48,542 bases of DNA from Xanthobacteraceae bacterium (GTDB lineage Bacteria > Pseudomonadota > Alphaproteobacteria > Rhizobiales > Xanthobacteraceae). The stretch spans positions 1-48,542 of the forward strand of contig JBJMTU010000372.1 in NCBI GenBank assembly GCA_045811545.1, given 5' to 3'. Shown in pieces: positions 2,327 through 47,023 of this stretch (the first letter of the stretch is position 1; the number at the start of each line of letters is the position of its first letter). The notes under the pieces were generated by a model, which saw nothing but the letters and a program-made list of their open reading frames with translations, was not told where the DNA came from and did not search any database. The translations under genes were made by a program, and so were the position numbers.

Positions 2327-4063
2327 GTGACCGATGCGGTTGGGCGGCTCGCTCCTTTGCCGACCGTTGCGCCGCGGCTCGATGCGAGATGGGTGCTGAT
2401 CGGCGCTCCGGTGGTGCTGGTCGTTTGGCTCTCCCTCGTACCGCTCGTGTTTTTGCTTTGGCAAAGCTTTCTCACGCCGCAGACGGCGGGGCTACCCGCG
2501 CAATACACGCTCGAGAACTTTCGCATCGCTTACATGAGCAGCGACAATGCGCGCCTTTTCTTCAATTCCCTGCAATTCTCAATCGGCGCCGCCCTGCTCT
2601 CGCTCGTGGTCGGCACCGCGCTCGCGTGGATGAATGAACGCACCAATACGCCGTTCAAGACGCTGTTCTTCGCCCTGGCGATCATCCCATTGGTGATTCC
2701 AGGCATTCTCTTCACGGTCTCGTGGATTCTCCTGGCGAGCCCGAAAATCGGCCTGATCAATCTCGCCCTGCAGAAACTGTTCGACACCGATGCCGTGTTC
2801 GTCAACGCCTACACCATGGCGGGGATGATTTGGGTCGATGGGTTGCACTACTCGCCTGTGGCTTTTCTGCTGATGACGGCCGCGTTCCGTTCCATGGATC
2901 CCGCGCTCGAAGAGCAAGCCGCCATGAGCGGAGCTTCCGTGCCGCAGATCGCGCGCCGGGTCACGTTGCCACTGGCCTGGCCGGCGGCGCTCGGGGCGCT
3001 TCTGATCCTGTTCGTGCGTGCGATTGAATCGTTCGAGGTGCCGGCGCTGCTCGGGCTGCCCGTGGGCATCTACGTCTACACCTCCTCGATCTATCAGGCG
3101 ATCCACCAATATCCGAGCCAGATCGGGCTCGCCGCCGCCTATGCCGTGACGCTGCTGCTCATCACCTCGCTCGGCATCTATGCGCAGTCGCGGCTCTCGA
3201 GTCAGGGCGGACGATTTTCGACCGTCACCGGCAAGGGCTTTCGTCCGCGCACCATCGACCTGGGTCGTTGGCGCTATGTCACCGCGGCAATCTTCATCCT
3301 CTATTTCATCGTGATCGTGCTGCTGCCGTTCCTGGTGCTGGTTTGGTCCTCGCTACAGAAGTTCTACAGCGCGCCGTCCTGGGCGGCGCTCAGCCGCGTC
3401 AGCCTCGATTCCTACCGCGCGGTGCTCGATTATCCGCAATTCATGAACACGGTTTGGAACAGCGTCCTGCTTGCGCTCGGCAGCGCCACCACCGTCATGC
3501 TGGTGTCGGCGGTCATCGCCTGGATCGTCGTGCGCACCAAAGTGCCGGGACGCTGGATGCTCGACAATCTGGCGTCGCTGCCGCTGGTTTTTCCCGGCCT
3601 GGTGCTCGGGCTCGCGATCATGGTCTGCTATCTCTACATCGACATCGGCATCTACGGCACGCTCTGGATCATCTTCATCGCCTATGTGACGCGCTTCTTG
3701 CCGTACGGCATGCGCTACAGTTCGGCCTCGATGCTGCAGATCCACAAGGAGCTCGAGGAATCGGCCGCCATGAGCGGGGCCTCTTGGAGCATGACCTTTC
3801 GCCGCGTCGTCCTGCCGCTGTTGAAGCCGGGACTGCTCGCCGGCTTTATCTACGTGATGATCGTCTCCATCCGCGAGTTGTCGAGCTCGATCCTGCTCTA
3901 CTCGCCGGGCAGCGAGGTGGTCTCGATCATGATCTGGGAGCTGTGGCAGAATGGGCAGTATGTGGAGCTTTCCGCGCTCGGCGTCATGCTGATCCTCGCG
4001 CTGTTCCTGCTGGTTATGCTGGCCCAACTTGCCGGTCGGCGGTTCGGGATTGCTGAAACCTAA
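2327..4063 (+). CDS. ABC importer permease, fused two-domain type (FbpB/ThiP/PotBC-like)
   Basis: ORF 2231..4063 is highly hydrophobic throughout. It has two EAA-loop motifs (EEQAAMSGASVPQIARRVTLPLAWPA and EESAAMSGASWSMTFRRVVLPLLKPG). The start is uncertain: the track start (TTG 2231) lies inside the repeat. In-frame alternatives are GTG 2282, GTG 2327, TTG 2357 and GTG 2393, none with a clear SD sequence. Confidence 0.85.
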   Translation: MTDAVGRLAPLPTVAPRLDARWVLIGAPVVLVVWLSLVPLVFLLWQSFLTPQTAGLPAQYTLENFRIAYMSSDNARLFFNSLQFSIGAALLSLVVGTALAWMNERTNTPFKTLFFALAIIPLVIPGILFTVSWILLASPKIGLINLALQKLFDTDAVFVNAYTMAGMIWVDGLHYSPVAFLLMTAAFRSMDPALEEQAAMSGASVPQIARRVTLPLAWPAALGALLILFVRAIESFEVPALLGLPVGIYVYTSSIYQAIHQYPSQIGLAAAYAVTLLLITSLGIYAQSRLSSQGGRFSTVTGKGFRPRTIDLGRWRYVTAAIFILYFIVIVLLPFLVLVWSSLQKFYSAPSWAALSRVSLDSYRAVLDYPQFMNTVWNSVLLALGSATTVMLVSAVIAWIVVRTKVPGRWMLDNLASLPLVFPGLVLGLAIMVCYLYIDIGIYGTLWIIFIAYVTRFLPYGMRYSSASMLQIHKELEESAAMSGASWSMTFRRVVLPLLKPGLLAGFIYVMIVSIRELSSSILLYSPGSEVVSIMIWELWQNGQYVELSALGVMLILALFLLVMLAQLAGRRFGIAET

Positions 4064-4066
4064 AGA

Positions 4067-5179
4067 ATGCAAAGGCGAAAAGTGCTCGGCGTTAGATCGC
4101 TTTTCACCGAATATGCCAACGAGCGCGGCGGCGCGGTCAAGGCCGTGCAGGACGTCTCGTTCAAGGTGCCGGAGGGCAAGCTGTTCACGCTGCTCGGACC
4201 GTCGGGCTGCGGCAAGACCACGACGCTGCGCTCGATCGCCGGACTTGAGAAGCCGAGCGCGGGCGAGATCGAAGTCGGCGGTCGCCTCGTCTATTCGTCG
4301 GATAAGGGCATTTTCGTTGCGCCGAACAGGCGCAATTTCGGCATGGTGTTTCAGTCGTACGCCATCTGGCCGCACATGAACGTGTTTCAGAACGCGGCGT
4401 TCCCGCTCGAGGTGCGCAGGCTCGCCAAGAAGGATATCCGCGAGCGGGTCATGCGCGTGCTGCACGCGGTGGCGCTCGATGCGCTGGTTGATCGCGATGC
4501 CACCAAGCTTTCGGGCGGCCAGCAGCAGCGGCTCGCGCTCGCGCGCGCCTTGGTCATGGAGCCGCAGCTTCTGCTGCTCGATGAGCCGCTCTCCAATCTC
4601 GATGCCAAGCTGCGCGACCGCATGCGCACCGAGCTCAAGCGGCTGCAGCGCGATCTCGGTCTCACGACCGTTTACGTCACTCACGACCAGACCGAGGCGC
4701 TCGCGCTCTCGCACGAGATCGCGGTGATGAACGAAGGCCGAGTGATCCAGATCGGCACGCCGCGGCAGATTTACGAGCAGCCGAGCGACAAATTCGTCGC
4801 CGATTTTGTCGGGACCACCAACTTCATCGGCGGAACCGTGACCGCCATCCACGATGGCCGCTGTATCGTCAGCTCGGCGATGGGCGAACTCAACGCGCAT
4901 GCGAGCGAGGGCGTGGCCAAGAACGCGGCTGTCATCGTATCGGTACGACCGGAAGACGTGGAATTGTCGGAAGCGCCGCCGGCGGCCGCCGATGGCGACA
5001 ATGTCTGCAAGGGCATGATCGACGCCAAGGATTTCCTCGGCGACTACCTGGATTTTCACATCAGGGTCGGCGATGTTATCCTGTTGGCGAAAGCGCATCC
5101 ATCGCTGCGCACGCCGACCGGCGATTCGATCTATCTGCGCATGAAGGCGGACAAATGCGTCGCTATCAGCAGCCAGTAA
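4067..5179 (+). CDS. ABC transporter ATP-binding protein (PotA/FbpC/MalK-like, with C-terminal regulatory/TOBE-like extension)
   Basis: Walker A GPSGCGKTT, signature LSGGQQQRLALARAL, Walker B LLLLDEPLSNLD and H-loop YVTHDQ. It starts 3 nt after the permease stop. Confidence 0.92.
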   Translation: MQRRKVLGVRSLFTEYANERGGAVKAVQDVSFKVPEGKLFTLLGPSGCGKTTTLRSIAGLEKPSAGEIEVGGRLVYSSDKGIFVAPNRRNFGMVFQSYAIWPHMNVFQNAAFPLEVRRLAKKDIRERVMRVLHAVALDALVDRDATKLSGGQQQRLALARALVMEPQLLLLDEPLSNLDAKLRDRMRTELKRLQRDLGLTTVYVTHDQTEALALSHEIAVMNEGRVIQIGTPRQIYEQPSDKFVADFVGTTNFIGGTVTAIHDGRCIVSSAMGELNAHASEGVAKNAAVIVSVRPEDVELSEAPPAAADGDNVCKGMIDAKDFLGDYLDFHIRVGDVILLAKAHPSLRTPTGDSIYLRMKADKCVAISSQ

Positions 5180-6517: not shown

Positions 6518-8044
6518 TCAGCCTCGAATTGATGAAGGTGCCTTCATCGCACGCGTACAGCGCCCGCGGGCTCCCGTTCCCTTGAGTCCAGGTTGACGAA
6601 GACGAGCAAGACGTACCGCTTGGGTTACGACGCGAAGCGGTGCCGTTATCCGCCAGCTCGTGGATTTGAGCAGCGCATCTCTCTCGCGCTGCATGTCGTG
6701 GAGATTGGCAACTAGCTCCGCGATTGACGGATCATCCTCCCATTGAACAGGTCTGATCGTCGGTGAGTCCGCCGCTTTAGCGATCCAGGCCTCCATGAGT
6801 CGGTCCGCGTCGGCAGTCGGTACGAACGCGTCGATCGGGCTGGTGGCTGAGCGCGCCGCATCGAGCCGACGCTGCAGATAGTCGTGGAGCCAGCGGCCGT
6901 CGTTCAGCAACGTCGCGGGCACGAGGTAGCGCTCGAGTAGCCAAGCCAAAAACGCGTCAACGTTCGTAGACTTGCCGAGCCGACCAAAAAAATTCGCAAA
7001 TGTCGTTGCATCCGCAACATTGGATAACTCGGTTGAAGGCGGAGAGCCGAGGAGGCGGTTAAACAGCAATGCCTGATAGCCAATACTTGACGAGACACTC
7101 CAGACACCGTCAACCCGCGGCACCAGGAATTGCGATGACGACTGGTAGCGACGGAATTCGTCTAGAAAAATCATATTTGGAAACGTCCGGCGTAGCACAT
7201 CTATGTTTGAGTTTGGACCGGATCGCCTGAGAACGGGCTCACCGCTGGGATGCTCGGTGACGATAACCGCGATATGTTTCGGGGCGGCAACCAAGACATC
7301 ATACAAGTATTCGAATTGTGTACGGTAGCTTACCGGCCCATCGAAGGAAAATTCGTTCGAGATCTGCAGCGGAAGAAGACAAAGTCGATCAAAGCGACTG
7401 CCAAAGTCATTGGCTCGAAATGGATCAAGAGAGTTGAGGGCAGCTGCCATCTGCGAGCGAAATGCCGACACGAGGACGCGCGCATCTGACGTAACCGGAT
7501 ATGCGAGCTTCAGTCCTCCCACTTTCGCGACTGCTGACCGACTATAGGTGCCAAGATGATCGAAATAAAAACTGACGGGATACGGAGATCGCCCAAAATA
7601 ACCCCGCTCGATGTGCAGCCGCAGCGCGGTCGGCCACAATTTCGCGAGGCAATTGGCCTGGCCGGCAAAACCGATGATGATATCCGGTTCGAAGCCCCTG
7701 ACATTCCGCGCCACCATCTCTGCGATAGCGCCGAGCGCCGGCTGCGCTGTATCATCGGCTCGATGCGCCGTTTGATCCAACGCGGTGGGAAGTTCGCCGA
7801 GCTCTCTTATCCTTCGGTACAATAAGTGTTCGTCCAGCCAGACGGTGCGAAGCCCGGTCAAGAGATGGACCTTCCCGTTTTGCCCGGCCCAGTCGCTGAA
7901 CCAACCGCCCGTAATCAACATGCACTCGCATCTGGTTTCCCGGCGTAAGGGCTGAAGGAGTTCGGCAAGGGCCTCCACCCCGCCGTAGTTGAAGCCCGGC
8001 CCATTTGCCTGCACGAGCGGATTGACGAAGCAAGCCACCTTCAT
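6518..8044 (-). CDS. capsule polysaccharide biosynthesis-like protein (KpsS/KpsC 'Capsule_synth'-type), with C-terminal extension
   Basis: A 508-aa ORF in a distinctly lower-GC segment. The internal LLPLQISNEFSF resembles the (F)xPLQxxxDxQ hallmark of KpsS/KpsC-type beta-Kdo transferases as I recall it. The C-terminal ~90 aa contain LLKSTSWRITAPLR. The family assignment is from memory of motifs only. Confidence 0.6.
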   Translation of the reverse strand: MKVACFVNPLVQANGPGFNYGGVEALAELLQPLRRETRCECMLITGGWFSDWAGQNGKVHLLTGLRTVWLDEHLLYRRIRELGELPTALDQTAHRADDTAQPALGAIAEMVARNVRGFEPDIIIGFAGQANCLAKLWPTALRLHIERGYFGRSPYPVSFYFDHLGTYSRSAVAKVGGLKLAYPVTSDARVLVSAFRSQMAAALNSLDPFRANDFGSRFDRLCLLPLQISNEFSFDGPVSYRTQFEYLYDVLVAAPKHIAVIVTEHPSGEPVLRRSGPNSNIDVLRRTFPNMIFLDEFRRYQSSSQFLVPRVDGVWSVSSSIGYQALLFNRLLGSPPSTELSNVADATTFANFFGRLGKSTNVDAFLAWLLERYLVPATLLNDGRWLHDYLQRRLDAARSATSPIDAFVPTADADRLMEAWIAKAADSPTIRPVQWEDDPSIAELVANLHDMQRERDALLKSTSWRITAPLRVVTQAVRLARLRQPGLKGTGARGRCTRAMKAPSSIRG

Positions 8045-43316: not shown

Positions 43317-46300
43317 ATGATCGCAGATACGAACACTTGCCCCGCCGCGGATGCAGATACGACACCCCTCTTCAGCGCTGCCTACGCGCCGCCCGACGAG
43401 GCGATCGCAGCCACCCTGCTCGATGAAGCCGCCCGCGCCAGCGAGGCCGAACGGCGAATCGACGCCTACGCAAGGCGTCTGGTCGAGGGGATCAGGGCGA
43501 GGGCCGGGGGACTCGGCGGCGTCGAGGATTTCCTGCACGCCTATTCCCTCTCAACCAAGGAGGGGCTTGCCCTCATGGTATTGGCGGAGGCGCTGCTGCG
43601 GGTGCCCGATGCCGCCACCGCCGACCGGCTGATCGAGGACAAGCTGGCGACCGGCGAATGGTCGTCGCACCATGTCAAATCGAGCGCGCTCTTGGTCTCG
43701 GCCTCGGCGTGGACGCTCGGCATTACCGCTCGCATCATCCACCCCGGCGAGACCCCGGATACGATTCTGGAAAGTCTCATCAAACGCCTTGGCATTCCCG
43801 CCGTACGCGCGGCCACGCGCCAGGCGATGCGGCTCTTGGCCTCGCATTTCGTGCTCGGACAGACCATCGAGGAGGCGCTTGAGCGCGCCCGCGACCAACG
43901 AGCGCTGCGCTATTCATTCGACATGCTGGGGGAGGGTGCGCGCACGCGGGCGGACGCGGAGCGTTATTTCGCGTCCTACGCCCATGCGATCGAGGCCATC
44001 GGCAGGCATGCCGCTGATGCGAACCGTGCCGCCATTTCGGTCAAGCTTTCCGCCTTGCATCCGCGCTTCGAGGCGGTATCGCGCGATCTGGTTTTGACCG
44101 AACTCGTGCCGCAGGTGCTCCAGCTAGCGCAGAAGGCGCGCGACTGCGGCCTCGATCTTACGGTGGATGCCGAGGAGGCCGATCGGCTCGAACTCACCCT
44201 CGACGTGATCGCAGCAGTCCTGGCGGAGACGTCGCTGCGCGGCTGGGACGGCTTTGGGGTTGCGGTACAAGCCTATCAGAAGCGCGCGCCTGCCGTGATC
44301 GAGTGGCTCGACGAAACCGCCAGCAGGCTGCGCTGCCGACTGACGGTGCGGCTGGTCAAGGGCGCCTACTGGGATACCGAAATCAAACGCGCCCAGGAGC
44401 GCGGTCTCGCCGACTATCCCGTGTTCACGCGCAAGACGATGACCGACCTCTGCTATACCGCCTGCACCAGAAAGCTGCTCGCCAAGCGGCCGCGGCTCTA
44501 TCCGCAATTCGCGACTCACAACGCGCTCACCGTCGCAAGTGTGATCGAGGATGCCGGCGGCGTTGAAGGCTATGAGTTCCAGCGCCTGTACGGCATGGGC
44601 GAGGTGCTGTACCAGCTCTTGCTGGCCGATTACCCGCGGGCGGTCTGCCGGATCTACGCTCCGGTCGGCGGCCACCGCGATCTTCTCGCCTATCTCGTGC
44701 GCCGTCTGCTGGAGAACGGCGCGAACTCCTCCTTCGTGTCGGTGGCCGCGGATCCGGCGGTGCCGGTTGCCTCGATTCTCGAACGTCCGCAGAACCGGAT
44801 CGGCGACGCGCGTCGTGCGCGCAACCCGAAGATTCCTCTGCCGCGCGACCTTTATGCCCCGGAACGACGCAACTCGTCCGGCGTGGAATTCGGCGACCGG
44901 ACGGCACTCGATGCGCTGCTCGCCGAGATCCGCGATGCCCGCCCTGCGGTCGAGGCGGCGCCGTTCGTCGATGGGACGAGCCGTCCCGGCGTCGAGCGCT
45001 CGGTGCTGTCGCCGATCGATGGCAATGTGATTGGCCGGGTTGGCGAGGCAGACGGCGCCGTCGCCTCGGCGGCCATGGCGGCAGCGCACGCGGGTTTTGT
45101 CCCGTGGGCCGCGACCGCGCTCGAGGTGCGCTCCGCCGTGCTCGAGCGCGCTGGCGATCTCCTTGAAGGACGGCGCGCCCGGCTCATCGCGCTGTTGCAG
45201 GGGGAGGGCGGCAAGACGCTCGACGACGCGCTGGCGGAAGTGCGCGAGGCCGTCGATTTCTGTCGCTACTACGCGCTCGAGGCGCGCCGCACGCTGGCGC
45301 CGCGGTCGTTGCCCGGGCCGACCGGCGAAGCAAACGAGCTTCGCTACCGCGGCCGTGGCGTGTTCGTCTGCATCAGCCCATGGAATTTTCCGCTCTCGAT
45401 CTTTCTCGGTCAGGTCAGCGCCGCGCTGGTTGCCGGCAATACAGTGGTGGCGAAACCGGCCGAGCAGACGCCGCTCATCGCCGGCGAGGCGGTGCGCATC
45501 TTGCATCAAGCGGGAATTCCATCGAGCGCGCTGCATCTGTTGCCGGGCGACGGCAAAGTCGGCGCCGCGCTCGTCGCCGATCCGCGCGTCGGGGGCGTTG
45601 CCTTCACCGGCTCGACTGAAGTCGCCCGCGCGATCGATCGCGCGCTGGCCGTGAAGGATGGTCCCATCGTGCCGCTGATCGCGGAAACCGGCGGCATCAA
45701 TCCGATGATCGTCGACGCGACCGCGCTGCCGGAGCAAGTCACCGACGATGTCATCACCTCGGCGTTCCGCTCGGCCGGCCAGCGCTGCTCGGCGCTGCGC
45801 CTGCTCTGCGTGCAGGAGGATGTGGCCGATCCCATCGTCGAGATGATCGCAGGCGCCGCGCGCGAGCTCACCCTCGGCGATCCGCGCGCGCCTTCCACTC
45901 ATGTGGGGCCTGTGATCGATGCCGAGGCGAAGGAGAAGCTCGACCGCTGGATTGCCGACAAGGAGCGGGAAGGCCGCCTGCGCTTCCGTTGGGACGCCTT
46001 CAAGCCGTTGCCGCAGAGAGGCACCTACGTGCCGCCGGCCATCGTCATGCTCGAGCGCGCGCGGGATTTGCGGCAAGAGGTGTTCGGACCAATCCTGCAC
46101 GTCGTGCGCTGGCGCGCCGGCGAGCTCGATGTATTGCTCGATGAGATTGCGGCAAACGGCTACGCTCTCACGCTCGGCATCCATTCCCGCATCGATACCA
46201 CCGTCGACCACATCGTCGGGCGGCTTCCTCACGGGAACGTCTACGTCAATCGCAGCATGATCGGTGCCGTCGTCGGCACGCAGCCGTTCGGCGGCAGCGC

Positions 46301-46427
46301 GCTTTCGGGCACCGGCCCGAAGGCGGGCGGTCCCAACTATGTCGAGCGATTTGCCGCCGAGCAGGTGGTGACCATCAACACCGCCGCTGTGGGTGGCAAT
46401 GCCTCGTTGTTCGCCAGTGAGGACTAG
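43317..46427 (+). CDS. putA: bifunctional proline dehydrogenase / L-glutamate-gamma-semialdehyde dehydrogenase
   Basis: The 1036-aa protein has a PRODH barrel region (FDMLGEGA, LSALHPR, VQAYQKR, VRLVKGAYWD) followed by an ALDH domain (WNFPL, FTGSTEVA, ETGGINPMIVD, AGQRCSALR). There is no N-terminal ribbon-helix-helix domain. Confidence 0.95.
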   Translation: MIADTNTCPAADADTTPLFSAAYAPPDEAIAATLLDEAARASEAERRIDAYARRLVEGIRARAGGLGGVEDFLHAYSLSTKEGLALMVLAEALLRVPDAATADRLIEDKLATGEWSSHHVKSSALLVSASAWTLGITARIIHPGETPDTILESLIKRLGIPAVRAATRQAMRLLASHFVLGQTIEEALERARDQRALRYSFDMLGEGARTRADAERYFASYAHAIEAIGRHAADANRAAISVKLSALHPRFEAVSRDLVLTELVPQVLQLAQKARDCGLDLTVDAEEADRLELTLDVIAAVLAETSLRGWDGFGVAVQAYQKRAPAVIEWLDETASRLRCRLTVRLVKGAYWDTEIKRAQERGLADYPVFTRKTMTDLCYTACTRKLLAKRPRLYPQFATHNALTVASVIEDAGGVEGYEFQRLYGMGEVLYQLLLADYPRAVCRIYAPVGGHRDLLAYLVRRLLENGANSSFVSVAADPAVPVASILERPQNRIGDARRARNPKIPLPRDLYAPERRNSSGVEFGDRTALDALLAEIRDARPAVEAAPFVDGTSRPGVERSVLSPIDGNVIGRVGEADGAVASAAMAAAHAGFVPWAATALEVRSAVLERAGDLLEGRRARLIALLQGEGGKTLDDALAEVREAVDFCRYYALEARRTLAPRSLPGPTGEANELRYRGRGVFVCISPWNFPLSIFLGQVSAALVAGNTVVAKPAEQTPLIAGEAVRILHQAGIPSSALHLLPGDGKVGAALVADPRVGGVAFTGSTEVARAIDRALAVKDGPIVPLIAETGGINPMIVDATALPEQVTDDVITSAFRSAGQRCSALRLLCVQEDVADPIVEMIAGAARELTLGDPRAPSTHVGPVIDAEAKEKLDRWIADKEREGRLRFRWDAFKPLPQRGTYVPPAIVMLERARDLRQEVFGPILHVVRWRAGELDVLLDEIAANGYALTLGIHSRIDTTVDHIVGRLPHGNVYVNRSMIGAVVGTQPFGGSALSGTGPKAGGPNYVERFAAEQVVTINTAAVGGNASLFASED

Positions 46428-46501
46428 TGTGGTGGATTTGAAGTTCCTACGGATTTGCAGCGAGCTTCGAATAGGAACTTCAAATCCAAAAACCACACTA
46501 G
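46424..46501. repeat. 78-nt perfect hairpin element 1 (26-bp stem), overlapping the putA stop codon
   Basis: CTAGTGTGGT+GGATTTGAAGTTCCTA (46424-46449) pairs with TAGGAACTTCAAATCC (46472-46487) and ACCACACTAG (46492-46501). There is an AAAA bulge and a 22-nt loop. I verified the pairing base by base. Confidence 0.9.
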
Positions 46502-46514
46502 AGTCATAAGTTTG

Positions 46515-46590
46515 CTAGTGTCCCTTTGATTCCGAAGTTCGCACAAGAGTGTGCGGCGAGGGCTTGCGAACTTCGGAATCGGGACACTAG
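46515..46590. repeat. 76-nt perfect hairpin element 2 (26-bp stem), paralogous to element 1
   Basis: CTAGTGTCCC (46515-46524) and, after a TTT bulge, GATTCCGAAGTTCGCA (46528-46543) pair with TGCGAACTTCGGAATC+GGGACACTAG (46565-46590). The loop is 21 nt. It has the same 10+16 bp architecture and the same CTAGTGT/ACACTAG ends as element 1. Confidence 0.9.
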
Positions 46591-46642
46591 GAGCATAGTC
46601 GTTAACCCACTCGCGGCCGATTGGCGTTATCCTGGGGGAGGC

Positions 46643-47023
46643 ATGAGTGATTCGCTCGATCGCCTCTATCAGGCTGTCCTGGCCGCCCGCGCCGCAGACC
46701 CGGCATCCTCGCGGACCGCGCGGCTGTTGCACGCGGGCCGCAGCAAGATGGCCAAGAAGCTCGCGGAGGAAGCGGTCGAGGTGGTGATCGACGCCATGAA
46801 CGGCGATTCCGATGCGGTGGTGCGCGAAAGCGCCGACCTGCTCTACAATCTTGTGGTGCTCTGGGTCGCATCCGACGTCCACCCGAGCGACGTGTGGACG
46901 GAGATGGAGCGGCGCGAGCGGCTCTTGGGAATTGCCGAGAAACTTCCGAAGGAACGCGCCGACGCTCCACTGCGGCGCAAAGTCGTCGCGCTCGATCGCA
47001 GCCGCGCGCGCAAGCGGCGTTGA
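46643..47023 (+). CDS. hisE: phosphoribosyl-ATP pyrophosphohydrolase
   Basis: ATG 46643 follows GGGGGAGG. LDRLYQAV..R......S.TA.LL..G..K.AKKL.EEA.EV...A......AVV.ESADLLYNLVVLW matches the HisE/MazG-like pattern. Confidence 0.85.
   Translation: MSDSLDRLYQAVLAARAADPASSRTARLLHAGRSKMAKKLAEEAVEVVIDAMNGDSDAVVRESADLLYNLVVLWVASDVHPSDVWTEMERRERLLGIAEKLPKERADAPLRRKVVALDRSRARKRR

Follow-up and report, generated by a model that had tools for sequence, protein, structure and literature searches.

What are the two long hairpins that stand side by side directly behind a putA-like gene in this alphaproteobacterial DNA, and how did they come to lie in the spacer between putA and hisE? The window, i.e., the whole stretch of 48,542 nucleotides that was analysed, contains them in a 167-bp feature at positions 46424–46590. 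A preliminary description had regarded them as a pair of tandem elements. Below, we discuss their structure, the history of the locus, the family to which the hairpins belong, and the insertion sequences from which this family probably derives.

Two perfect hairpins between putA and hisE

All features reported in the preliminary description, i.e., the stems, bulges, loops, shared loop blocks and complementary differences between the arms, are present in the 167-bp feature, and the complementarity of all arms of both hairpins is 100%. The features of the locus are as follows.

43317–46427, + strand: putA-like gene (proline dehydrogenase / aldehyde dehydrogenase), from the list of open reading frames, with stop codon TAG at 46425–46427
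46424–46501: hairpin A (element 1), with a 10-bp outer stem (46424–46433/46492–46501) and a 16-bp inner stem (46434–46449/46472–46487)
46424–46449, + strand: outer (left-terminal) arm of hairpin A, the presumed left terminal inverted repeat according to the inverted repeats and the family alignment
46425–46426, no strand: left-hand TA of the target duplication, inside the target C-TA-G (empty site gaggaCTAGgagcatagtcg in the relatives L147 and L149)
46427–46587, no strand: inserted element proper of 161 bp (163 bp with one TA), made up of the two hairpins A and B with the linker between them, without an open reading frame
46450–46471, + strand: loop of hairpin A, 22 nt, with the TGCAGCGAG block
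46472–46501, + strand: inner arm of hairpin A, with a 4-nt bulge AAAA at 46488–46491
46502–46514, + strand: linker AGTCATAAGTTTG, 13 nt (family consensus G-AATCATAnnnTTGC)
46515–46590: hairpin B (element 2), with a 10-bp outer stem and a 16-bp inner stem (46528–46543/46565–46580)
46515–46543, + strand: inner arm of hairpin B, with a 3-nt bulge TTT at 46525–46527
46544–46564, + strand: loop of hairpin B, 21 nt, with the TGCGGCGAG block
46565–46590, + strand: outer (right-terminal) arm of hairpin B, the presumed right terminal inverted repeat
46588–46589, no strand: right copy of the duplicated TA, from the comparison with the empty site
46643–47023, + strand: hisE (phosphoribosyl-ATP pyrophosphohydrolase; PF01503), so named in homologues of 98% identity, the downstream neighbour outside the element

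The folding analysis that had been recommended showed the structure to be very stable on either strand, with energies of -41 to -45 kcal/mol and z-scores of -8.8 to -10.4 relative to dinucleotide shuffles. The combinations CTAGTGT...ACACTAG and GAAGTTC...GAACTTC are each found exactly twice in the window, whilst 0.00 occurrences are expected for either of them. The tetranucleotide CTAG, which had been described as generally scarce in bacterial DNA, is ~8-fold under-represented in the window (20 occurrences vs. 161 expected), and four of the 20 are located within the element. The open reading frame of putA, the orthologues of which show the Pfam matches Pro_dh-DNA_bdg, Pro_dh and Aldedh, ends with the TAG of the first CTAG, and its stop codon is thus located inside the first arm, as had been noted. 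Also the statement that the window contains no other copy was borne out, as neither a pattern scan nor nhmmer detected one in the window besides 46424–46590. The 48.5 kb examined thus contain one copy.

A single, recent insertion

The spacer between putA and hisE was compared across relatives, as had been suggested. Its length is 215 nt both in the window and among its nearest relatives (clade L127–L136), where hisE is 98% identical, and 52–53 nt in L137–L175, which comprise clades at 96, 94, and 92% identity. Two of these relatives (L147 and L149) offer an exact empty site, ...GAGGA-CTAG-GAGCATAGTCG..., the flanks of which are those of the window base for base. They read ttcgccagtgaggaCTAGgagcatagtcgttaaccc, which corresponds to the window flanks minus exactly the 163 bp. 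Hence, an empty C-TA-G (...GAGGA-C-TA-G-GAGCAT...) is found in the relatives where the window contains the filled C-TA-[161 bp]-TA-G. The empty site contains a single CTAG and lacks both hairpins as well as the 13-nt spacer. Since they are missing together, the two hairpins and the spacer are one inserted unit, not two. Thus, the earlier proposal of CTAG-bounded, MITE-like DNA was correct with respect to the class of element, but the supposed pair is a single composite.

No allele with a single hairpin was seen among ~60 orthologous putA-hisE loci, and a search for more diverged orthologous filled sites revealed none, the insertion being confined to the clade at 98% identity. The orthologous filled copies show 0 changes at the 104 stem positions, whilst their flanks differ by 3–4.5%; they are polymorphic at position 46470 in the loop of hairpin A and at position 46545 in the loop of hairpin B.

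At a CTAG target, a duplication of TA (2 bp) and one of CTAG (4 bp) look identical. However, a few copies of the element elsewhere have unequal end tetranucleotides (gTAG...CTAg, tTAG...CTAg, and cTAG...CTAc), which favors duplication of TA and an element with fixed G...C ends. The stop codon of putA was rebuilt from the target TA and the first base of the element, G. As the element starts with G, its insertion at a TAG stop codon restores the stop, and putA has probably remained unharmed. Most likely, the element rides along in the spacer between putA and hisE as a neutral passenger; consequences for GANTC methylation or for the stability or processing of mRNA, if there are any, would be secondary. 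The importance of the locus itself is, therefore, small: it represents a recent and apparently harmless insertion with preservation of the putA stop codon.

A dispersed repeat family in Alphaproteobacteria

The family was gathered by scanning genome contigs for the pattern CTAGTGT-N-GAAGTTC-N-GAACTTC and, subsequently, with nhmmer using an HMM of the composite. The pattern scan yielded at least 120 loci, nearly all of them in Alphaproteobacteria among the matches listed. With nhmmer, at least 145 non-redundant copies were found in both orientations, including at least 115 full two-hairpin composites, and the search for copies in other genomes that had been advised was thereby answered. The window element is a full-length match (46420–46594, E = 6.7e-47). 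A composite consists of hairpin A, a linker of 13–16 nt and hairpin B, and the unit measures 161–165 bp. Such composites occur in Hyphomicrobiales, Caulobacterales, Rhodospirillales, and other Alphaproteobacteria; copies were found, for example, in Caulobacter ginsengisoli (L091), in Caulobacteraceae MAGs and in Brucella (Ochrobactrum) daejeonensis (L059), and several MAGs contain three to four matching loci each. The element behind putA is one more copy of a widespread alphaproteobacterial repeat family and, as such, an ordinary though well-documented finding. A literature search with literal sequence strings of the element did not retrieve a relevant paper.

All four hairpin boundaries carry CTAG in the family. 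Among the matches listed, the left TA has a C in front of it in 80 of 83 units, and the right TA is followed by a G in 78 of 83. Abutting copies share one TA (L056, L059, and L102), and in L102 it is whole composites that abut. Solo hairpins flanked by C-TA...TA-G were encountered as well, ~15 of them among the matches listed, e.g., in L004, L036, and L099. The linker is conserved both in sequence and in length (mode 15 nt from TA to TA), as was seen in 48 and then in 98 composites from different orders. It matches the IHF consensus WATCAANNNNTTR with at most one mismatch in 47 of 98 copies, as compared to 2% of shuffled linkers; the linker in the window has two mismatches to this consensus. 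With respect to the insertion sites, 46 of 81 composites were found at stop codons, vs. 23 and 32 in shifted-frame controls, which is a modest signal.

The conservation of pairing by compensatory changes, which had been deduced from the two hairpins in the window, holds family-wide: 96% of the cells in the stems are paired, and double changes were found in 43 of the 52 pairs. Mismatches consist of 75 G·T and 88 A·C, i.e., without an excess of G·U. Such strict Watson-Crick complementarity without G·U excess indicates that the covariation acts at the level of the DNA. In the window, the two hairpins are modules of a single element, paralogous to each other, rather than diverged copies of an RNA. 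In some subfamilies, hairpins A and B resemble the left and right ends, respectively, of the parent insertion sequence (IS), which is discussed below.

Relationship with IS630-family insertion sequences

Complete IS copies were obtained from L125, L126, and L176–L187. These full elements of ~1155 bp belong to the IS630 family and encode transposases with DDE_3 and HTH (HTH_32/29/28/23) domains. They were found at several different sites, in Rhizobium, Agrobacterium, Komagataeibacter and Roseomonas plasmids as well as in contigs from soil metagenomes, and all full copies seen are flanked by CTAG. Classically, IS630-type elements prefer CTAG as the target and duplicate the TA within it. The ends of the ~1155-bp elements read CTAGTGTCCyGATCGnGAAnTT... 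and ...ACTTCrGAATCrGGACACTAG. The outer arm of hairpin B in the window, read as its reverse complement CTAGTGTCCCGATTCCGAAGTTCGC, is identical in 21 of the first 22 nt to the right inverted repeat (IRR) of the P0163 type (CTAGTGTCCTGATTCCGAAGT..., L179–L186), and it is also close to the IRR of the copy in Komagataeibacter oboediens (L176). Likewise, the B arms of a Roseibium copy are close to the IRR of the IS of Rhizobium jaguaris. The arms of hairpin A in the window show a loose likeness to known left ends (CTAGTGT and the GAAGTT core). In the IS copy of A. vitis (L003), no left end could be recognized. The flanks of L184 were considered as a case of an IS inserted into a linker, which was rejected on inspection.

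The empty CTAG, the dispersed family, and the homology of the arms with the terminal inverted repeats of IS630 elements together argue that the 167-bp feature is, with high probability, a single copy of a non-autonomous, IS630/Tc1-mariner-type MITE. It comprises 161 bp without a transposase gene, has duplicated a TA as judged from the filled and empty sites, prefers CTAG, resembles with its B arm the end of a full-length IS, and is present in multiple, dispersed copies. As a counterpoint, tblastn revealed no gene for an IS630 transposase, neither in the window nor next to the copies at the 120 family loci listed. Presumably, a DDE transposase of the IS630 family supplied in trans binds the arms, excises or copies the element, and inserts it at the TA within CTAG. 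The four arms, outer and inner, which represent left-end-like and right-end-like repeats, would then constitute two palindromic transposase-binding modules, and the linker, which is conserved, A/T-rich and IHF-like, probably introduces a bend into this very short DNA and thereby allows synapsis of the two ends. Of the protein-recognized site that was among the earlier suggestions, it is these presumed transposase-binding arms that may be retained.

Perfect hairpins and a conserved linker are more than standard cut-and-paste transposition of IS630 elements needs. Their strong upkeep hints at something beyond simple terminal repeats, and we return to this below.

Alternative explanations

As each of the hairpins has CTAG at its borders and resembles a left end joined via a loop to a right end, two MITEs of ~77 nt might have landed independently in neighboring CTAG sites, and the solo hairpins mentioned above suggest that single hairpins may be mobile on their own. 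However, two such insertions are hard to reconcile with an empty site that has one CTAG and neither the hairpins nor the 13-nt spacer, with the conservation of this spacer across orders, with the proportion of full composites (115 of the 145 family matches listed), and with the abutment of composites as whole units in L102; this scenario is very improbable. Equally little credence can be given to a MITE of another family of transposases that target YTAR or TA, e.g., the IS5 family (IS427-group, IS711-like), which the preliminary description had named as a possibility. The CTAG at both ends would fit a 4-bp YTAR duplication, and IS711 was reported to duplicate the TA of YTAR and to prefer the palindromic Bru-RS repeats. 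Yet, the arms match the ends of IS630-type elements with DDE_3/HTH transposases over at least 20 nt, similarity with IS5-type ends was not found, and the unequal end tetranucleotides in a few copies fit the duplication of TA.

A further alternative is a structured RNA with a function for the host, i.e., a double terminator, a processing or stabilizing element or an sRNA, with selection acting on the transcript. The stability of the hairpins is very high on either strand, their covariation is strong throughout the family, and the position of the element directly after a stop codon makes its transcription together with putA probable. Moreover, other MITEs, such as the Correia elements, are processed as RNA hairpins. 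However, Rfam searches gave no match at gathering thresholds, but only weak similarity to generic microRNA-precursor hairpin models (E ≥ 0.0015, far below the gathering scores), and scanning of the element revealed no promoter- or terminator-like site and no U-tract on either strand. Furthermore, close relatives do without the element, and its copies are found in both orientations in unrelated contexts. Selection on RNA from one strand would tolerate G·U only, whereas G·T and A·C mismatches were found in similar numbers (75 vs. 88). Thus, the suggested small RNA or double terminator is highly unlikely.

GANTC sites and a possible mechanism at the DNA level

The IS630-type MITE has a further feature. 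In 98 composites, GANTC sites are present at 2.23 per element, whilst 0.34 are expected, and they occur at three fixed positions, i.e., in both B arms (67/98 and 60/98) and at the start of the linker (39/98). The sites in the window are GAGTC at 46501–46505, GATTC at 46528–46532, and GAATC at 46576–46580. The IRR of the autonomous IS contains GANTC, too.

Besides being a transposon, the element could be a DNA module that is selected by the host or by the element itself as a methylation- or IHF-responsive site, with GANTC as the substrate of CcrM and the linker as an IHF-like site. Possible roles are those of a nucleoid site, a regulatory site, or a switch linking transposition with replication. 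The enrichment of GANTC at fixed positions, also in the autonomous IRR, would fit such a role, as would the match of the linkers to the IHF consensus far above that of shuffled linkers, the emphasis on conserved GANTC in the published description of the CIR repeats (see below), and the absence of changes at 104 stem positions next to flanks that differ by 3–4.5%. However, these motifs were inherited from a common ancestor, and the counts do not, therefore, represent independent events. Moreover, the linker in the window deviates at two positions from the IHF consensus, and approximately a quarter of the B arms are devoid of GANTC. A host role specific for this locus is disfavored by the recent and polymorphic nature of the insertion. 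Altogether, we consider selection of such a module unlikely.

The double foldback could be part of the transposition mechanism rather than a by-product. In this speculative proposal, which we hold with little confidence, transposition in this IS630 lineage would depend on methylation by CcrM and might depend, in addition, on synapsis that is assisted by IHF or involves hairpins or cruciforms, and the element would move solely on hemimethylated, just-replicated DNA. The combination of GANTC in the presumed transposase-binding arms with an IHF-like linker would point to CcrM-dependent transposition, and selection at the DNA level for such a mechanism would account for the strict Watson-Crick covariation seen in the arms. 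Control of transposition by Dam methylation is known for IS10 and IS50. If the proposal is true and the family is CIR, it would provide a mechanistic answer to the question, raised in 2003, of what lies behind the association of long intergenic repeats with CcrM sites.

Significance

If the family corresponds to CIR, which is probable, its connection with IS630 concerns a mobility mechanism that has been described as unknown in reviews. At the level of the family, a widespread two-hairpin repeat is tied to IS630 transposases via the empty site, the targeting of TA within CTAG, and the terminal repeats. Noteworthy features are the upkeep of the foldbacks at the DNA level, the IHF-like linker, and the CcrM sites in the presumed transposase-binding arms. 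The family explains many of the CTAG-bounded palindromes in intergenic regions of Alphaproteobacteria, and in practice such elements should be masked ahead of searches for sRNAs or terminators.

Comparison with known systems

Intergenic mosaics in which a short, conserved linker joins two palindromes are known from the BIME/RIP elements of enterobacteria and the RIME1 and RIME2 elements of Rhizobium, which, by description, resemble the present family in this respect. In BIME/RIP, two REP palindromes flank an IHF site; the REPs are 20–40 nt long, are mobilized by RAYT (IS200/IS605-like) and do not duplicate TA. The RIMEs measure 108–109 bp. The Correia elements (NEMIS/CREE) of Neisseria are MITEs of ~105–155 bp that duplicate TA and contain, in their long form, a central IHF site. 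They share with the present family the location near genes, the long hairpins and the TA duplication. However, they form a single stem between their ends, are different in sequence, and reside in another class of hosts, whereas the present family has two hairpins, with a linker that appears IHF-like by its match to the consensus only. Brucella contains Bru-RS1 and Bru-RS2, palindromic intergenic repeats of a reported 103–106 bp that have been reported as favored targets of IS711, an element with insertion at YTAR and duplication of TA. They resemble the present family as palindromic intergenic repeats in Hyphomicrobiales; this comparison is one of descriptions and serves as a lead only.

Like the window element, the MITEs derived from IS630, such as RUP of Streptococcus pneumoniae, are short and non-coding and have TA at their junctions. 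RUP was linked to IS630-Spn1 by the similarity of the terminal inverted repeats and by TA targets (Delihas review), and it has no sequence relation with the window element. The latter shares with IS630-family elements homologous terminal inverted repeats and insertion at the TA in CTAG, in this case with an exact empty site. It differs from IS630-derived MITEs in that each of its ends is a perfect foldback of ~26 bp, with a conserved linker between them; hence, two hairpins are formed side by side rather than one stem from end to end.

A further resemblance is to CIR, the CcrM-associated intergenic repeats that are found in Alphaproteobacteria, Caulobacter and Brucella among them. These were described to consist of two long inverted-repeat arms and a linker, with TA at the termini and phylogenetically conserved GANTC. 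These traits, i.e., an intergenic location in Alphaproteobacteria, two arms with a linker, TA termini and GANTC, are all found in the present family. According to a review, CIR is ~110 bp long and lacks terminal inverted repeats, with unknown target duplication and an unclear mechanism of mobility. The unit described here measures 161–165 bp as compared to ~110 bp, and the motifs as published may span only a portion of the mobile unit. Judged by the published description, the two-hairpin family is probably CIR.

The hairpins and their setting

The putA-hisE spacer of the window contains two adjacent hairpins, and the preliminary description of their stems, bulges and loops proved accurate:

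43317-46427: putA-like open reading frame, closed by the TAG of the first CTAG
46424-46501: hairpin A, perfect 10-bp and 16-bp stems, 4-nt bulge (AAAA) in the right arm, 22-nt loop
46515-46590: hairpin B, perfect 10-bp and 16-bp stems, 3-nt bulge (TTT) in the left arm, 21-nt loop
46501, 46528 and 46576: GANTC sites
46643: start of hisE, preceded by the Shine-Dalgarno sequence GGGGGAGG

Thus, the putA stop codon indeed lies inside the first arm. Both hairpins are predicted to be very stable on either strand (-41 to -45 kcal/mol, 9-10 SD below dinucleotide shuffles). The ends CTAGTGT...ACACTAG and the core GAAGTTC...GAACTTC each occur twice in the window, only at the hairpins (expected 0.00), and CTAG, described earlier as scarce, is 8-fold under-represented there (20 seen vs. 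161 expected). A GCNGC-containing block is kept in both loops (TGCAGCGAG at 46456-46464 and TGCGGCGAG at 46551-46559; columns ~48-58 and ~160-170 of alignment A2, see below).

Insertion at the putA stop codon

An IS630/Tc1-mariner-type element that is non-autonomous and built as an unusual double foldback accounts for the feature; its insertion is recent and polymorphic. Homologues of hisE place the window among uncultured soil Xanthobacteraceae. In the closest clade (loci L127-L136, hisE 98% identical), the putA-hisE spacer is 215 nt long, as in the window, and contains the same element; in clades with hisE 96%, 94%, and 92% identical, it measures 52-53 nt (alignment A1). The empty site of two such relatives (L147 and L149), ttcgccagtgaggaCTAGgagcatagtcgttaaccc, is identical to the window flanks at every base. 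Hence, C-TA-G of these relatives corresponds to C-TA-[161 bp]-TA-G in the window, and the 163-bp insertion consists of a 161-bp element and one duplicated TA. The suggestion of a MITE-like insertion therefore stood, but as one unit rather than two separate elements. The element inserted into the TA of the putA stop codon, which is rebuilt because the element starts with G.

Between the window and orthologous filled copies, only two positions vary (46470 and 46545), both in loops, and none of 104 stem positions does, whereas the flanking DNA differs by 3-4.5%. This is a weak hint of constraint or else of recombination having spread the filled allele later. The last putA codons of the window (46380-46423, GCCAGTGAGGAC) equal those of the empty-site clade of L147 and differ from those of the filled clade of L127 (GCCGCCGGCGAC), even though L127 is overall the more similar of the two to the window. 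This pattern suggests that the region around the insertion has recombined or that the element was precisely lost.

One composite unit in a dispersed family

The two hairpins, with the linker between them, are one unit. Distant BLAST matches on Roseibium/Labrenzia plasmids cover the junction, i.e., the right arm of hairpin A, the spacer and the left arm of hairpin B. In these plasmids, hairpin, 13-nt spacer and hairpin lie directly 3' of an SDR gene, the stop codon of which is likewise within the first CTAG. A scan of the genome collection with the pattern CTAGTGT-N(6-14)-GAAGTTC-N(20-45)-GAACTTC yielded at least 120 loci. Among the matches listed, nearly all are from Alphaproteobacteria, including Hyphomicrobiales (Bradyrhizobium, Mesorhizobium, Brucella, Hyphomicrobium, Xanthobacteraceae), Caulobacterales, Rhodospirillales, Parvularculales and Micropepsales. 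Within these listed loci, at least 159 hairpins 71-78 nt long are enclosed by TAG...CTA, and at least 48 clean pairs can be made out. The spacers of the pairs measure 13-18 nt, counted TA to TA (mode 15), and their sequence is conserved as G-AATCATAnnnTTGC, read on either strand. With an HMM of the hairpin pairs, at least 145 non-redundant copies were found in the listed loci, at least 115 of which span both hairpins and ~15 of which are solo, the remainder being broken at contig ends; the further copies for which a pattern search had been proposed thus exist.

Since the bulge bases are on the linker-side arms in every pair among the listed loci, the order of the unit is outer arm, loop, inner arm (AAA), linker, inner arm (TTT), loop, outer arm. 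The two loops of many copies resemble reverse complements of each other, making the unit a palindrome of palindromes centered on the linker. Solo hairpins without partner or linker, in C-TA...TA-G-like flanks (L004:1501-1575, L036:~3306-3379, L099:~3700-3773), may be mobile independently or may be what is left of a composite that lost one half. In the Bradyrhizobium sp. CB82 plasmid pCB82_1, a degenerate hairpin B that still has a conserved loop and right arm lies over the start of an annotated hypothetical CDS (L002:1499-1556).

Among the listed loci, C stands immediately before the left TA in 80 of 83 units, and G immediately after the right one in 78 of 83. Adjacent copies have one TA in common. 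At locus L102, three complete composites stand head to tail (4087-4613) with a single TA between neighbors, and two more copies are found within the same 8 kb (1836-2025 and 7559-7753); it looks like a hot spot where elements enter the CTAG at the ends of copies already present. For 46 of 81 composites, an open frame of 100 codons or more stops at the TAG of one end, against 23 and 32 in shifted-frame controls. This suggests that insertions often fall precisely on TAG stop codons and that the element restores them; the effect is modest in these high-GC genomes.

Conservation of pairing

That pairing is maintained while the sequence diverges had been proposed from the two hairpins, and holds family-wide. 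When 98 composites from the listed matches (alignment A2) were scored on the structure of the window, it was retained in 96.1% of cells, with compensatory double changes in 43 of 52 pairs. Double-change cells numbered 637; shuffling the columns gave 177 ± 15, with none of 500 shuffles attaining 637, and pairing fell to 25-43% when partners were slid by 1-3 columns.

Such covariation, like the folding energies, might be expected of a structured small RNA or a terminator, as considered in the preliminary description. However, among mismatched cells, G·T (75) is not commoner than A·C (88; two alignment-edge pairs excluded). Judging from the alignment, the constraint is therefore one of strict Watson-Crick complementarity of DNA rather than a G·U-tolerant single-strand RNA pattern. 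Rfam gave no family at curated thresholds, the permissive matches being generic microRNA-precursor hairpins far below the cut-offs, and no promoter- or terminator-like site was found at the feature; neither reading is supported. The complementarity of the DNA might stem from selection for transposase sites that are identical or fold back, from intermediates with a hairpin or cruciform, or from template-switch correction of quasi-palindromes.

Relation to IS630-family insertion sequences

The right arm of hairpin B in Roseibium matches the 3' ends of annotated IS630-family transposase genes of Agrobacterium vitis and Rhizobium plasmids. Complete IS copies of ~1155 bp were found on plasmids of Rhizobium jaguaris, Rhizobium sp. 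007, Komagataeibacter oboediens and Roseomonas marmotae, and on soil metagenome contigs, where one transposase (P0163) occurs at several different sites (L179-L186), suggesting that this lineage is currently active in these soil communities. Their transposases all have DDE_3 and HTH_32/29/28/23 domains and are 62-81% identical to each other. All complete copies are located in CTAG, and in every full copy examined the transposase stop codon TAG consists of the duplicated target TA and the G of the CTAG target; thus, the transposase ORF is closed only upon insertion into (C)TAG.

IS left end, IRL: CTAGTGTCCyGATCGnGAAnTT...
IS right end, IRR: CTAGTGTCCyGATTCyGAAGT...
Transposase gene end, TAG: L125:1827-1829, L126:1827-1829, L176:1620-1622, L177:1621-1623, L178-L187

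The outer B arm of the window (CTAGTGTCCCGATTCCGAAGTTCGC) matches the IRR of the P0163-type IS in 21 of the first 22 nt, and the other hairpin (arms ...GATCGAGAAATTCGC) is IRL-like in some subfamilies. By this resemblance, each hairpin type looks like the foldback of a different IS end. A transposase gene is found neither in the window nor beside any of the 120 loci listed.

An IS5-family origin with a 4-bp duplication had been suggested by the CTAG boundaries, and duplications of TA and of CTAG look the same when the target is CTAG. Yet, the arms match the ends of IS elements with DDE_3 and HTH transposases, i.e., IS630, and the IS5 reading is not supported. In a few copies, the tetranucleotides at the two ends differ (gTAG...CTAg, tTAG...CTAg, cTAG...CTAc), consistent with TA duplication and fixed G...C ends. 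The IS630 family inserts at TA, classically inside CTAG.

GANTC sites and the linker

Each element has on average 2.23 copies of GANTC, the site methylated by CcrM, vs. 0.34 expected from the surrounding loci, with fixed positions in both B arms (67/98 and 60/98) and at the linker start (39/98). The same GATTC is present in the IRR of the autonomous IS and absent from its IRL. In 47 of 98 copies, the linker departs from the IHF consensus WATCAANNNNTTR by no more than one base (10 of them fit it exactly), whereas 2% of shuffled linkers come as close; the window linker has two mismatches. As the 98 copies share descent, these counts show conservation and not 98 independent events. From its consensus match, the linker is a candidate site that may bind IHF, and an IHF-type bend midway in a 160-bp element would plausibly help both ends meet. 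The GANTC sites in the arms may tie transposition to CcrM methylation.

Comparison with known repeats

The feature is real and explained as one more copy of a known kind of element; its mildly interesting aspects are that the foldbacks are kept perfect, that the linker may bind IHF and that the GANTC sites in the arms may have a role in transposition. Enterobacterial RIP/BIME-1 units also have a central IHF site, comparable to the candidate site of this linker, as do Correia elements according to review. The textbook IS630-linked MITE of that literature is RUP of pneumococcus. The CIR repeats of Caulobacter, Brucella and other Alphaproteobacteria (Chen and Shapiro, 2003), as far as the Delihas review describes them, are intergenic, have two long inverted repeats forming two arms with a linker, TA termini and phylogenetically conserved GANTC, and all four traits are found in this family, copies of which occur, among the matches listed, in Caulobacter ginsengisoli, Caulobacteraceae MAGs and Brucella daejeonensis. 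In contrast, the size stated there is ~110 bp, vs. 161-165 bp for these units. The review's entry for CIR gives terminal inverted repeats as "-" and target duplication as "?" and calls for more information on mobility. By description rather than sequence, this family is likely identical with CIR, and likewise with the Brucella Bru-RS1/2 repeats and the Rhizobium RIMEs.
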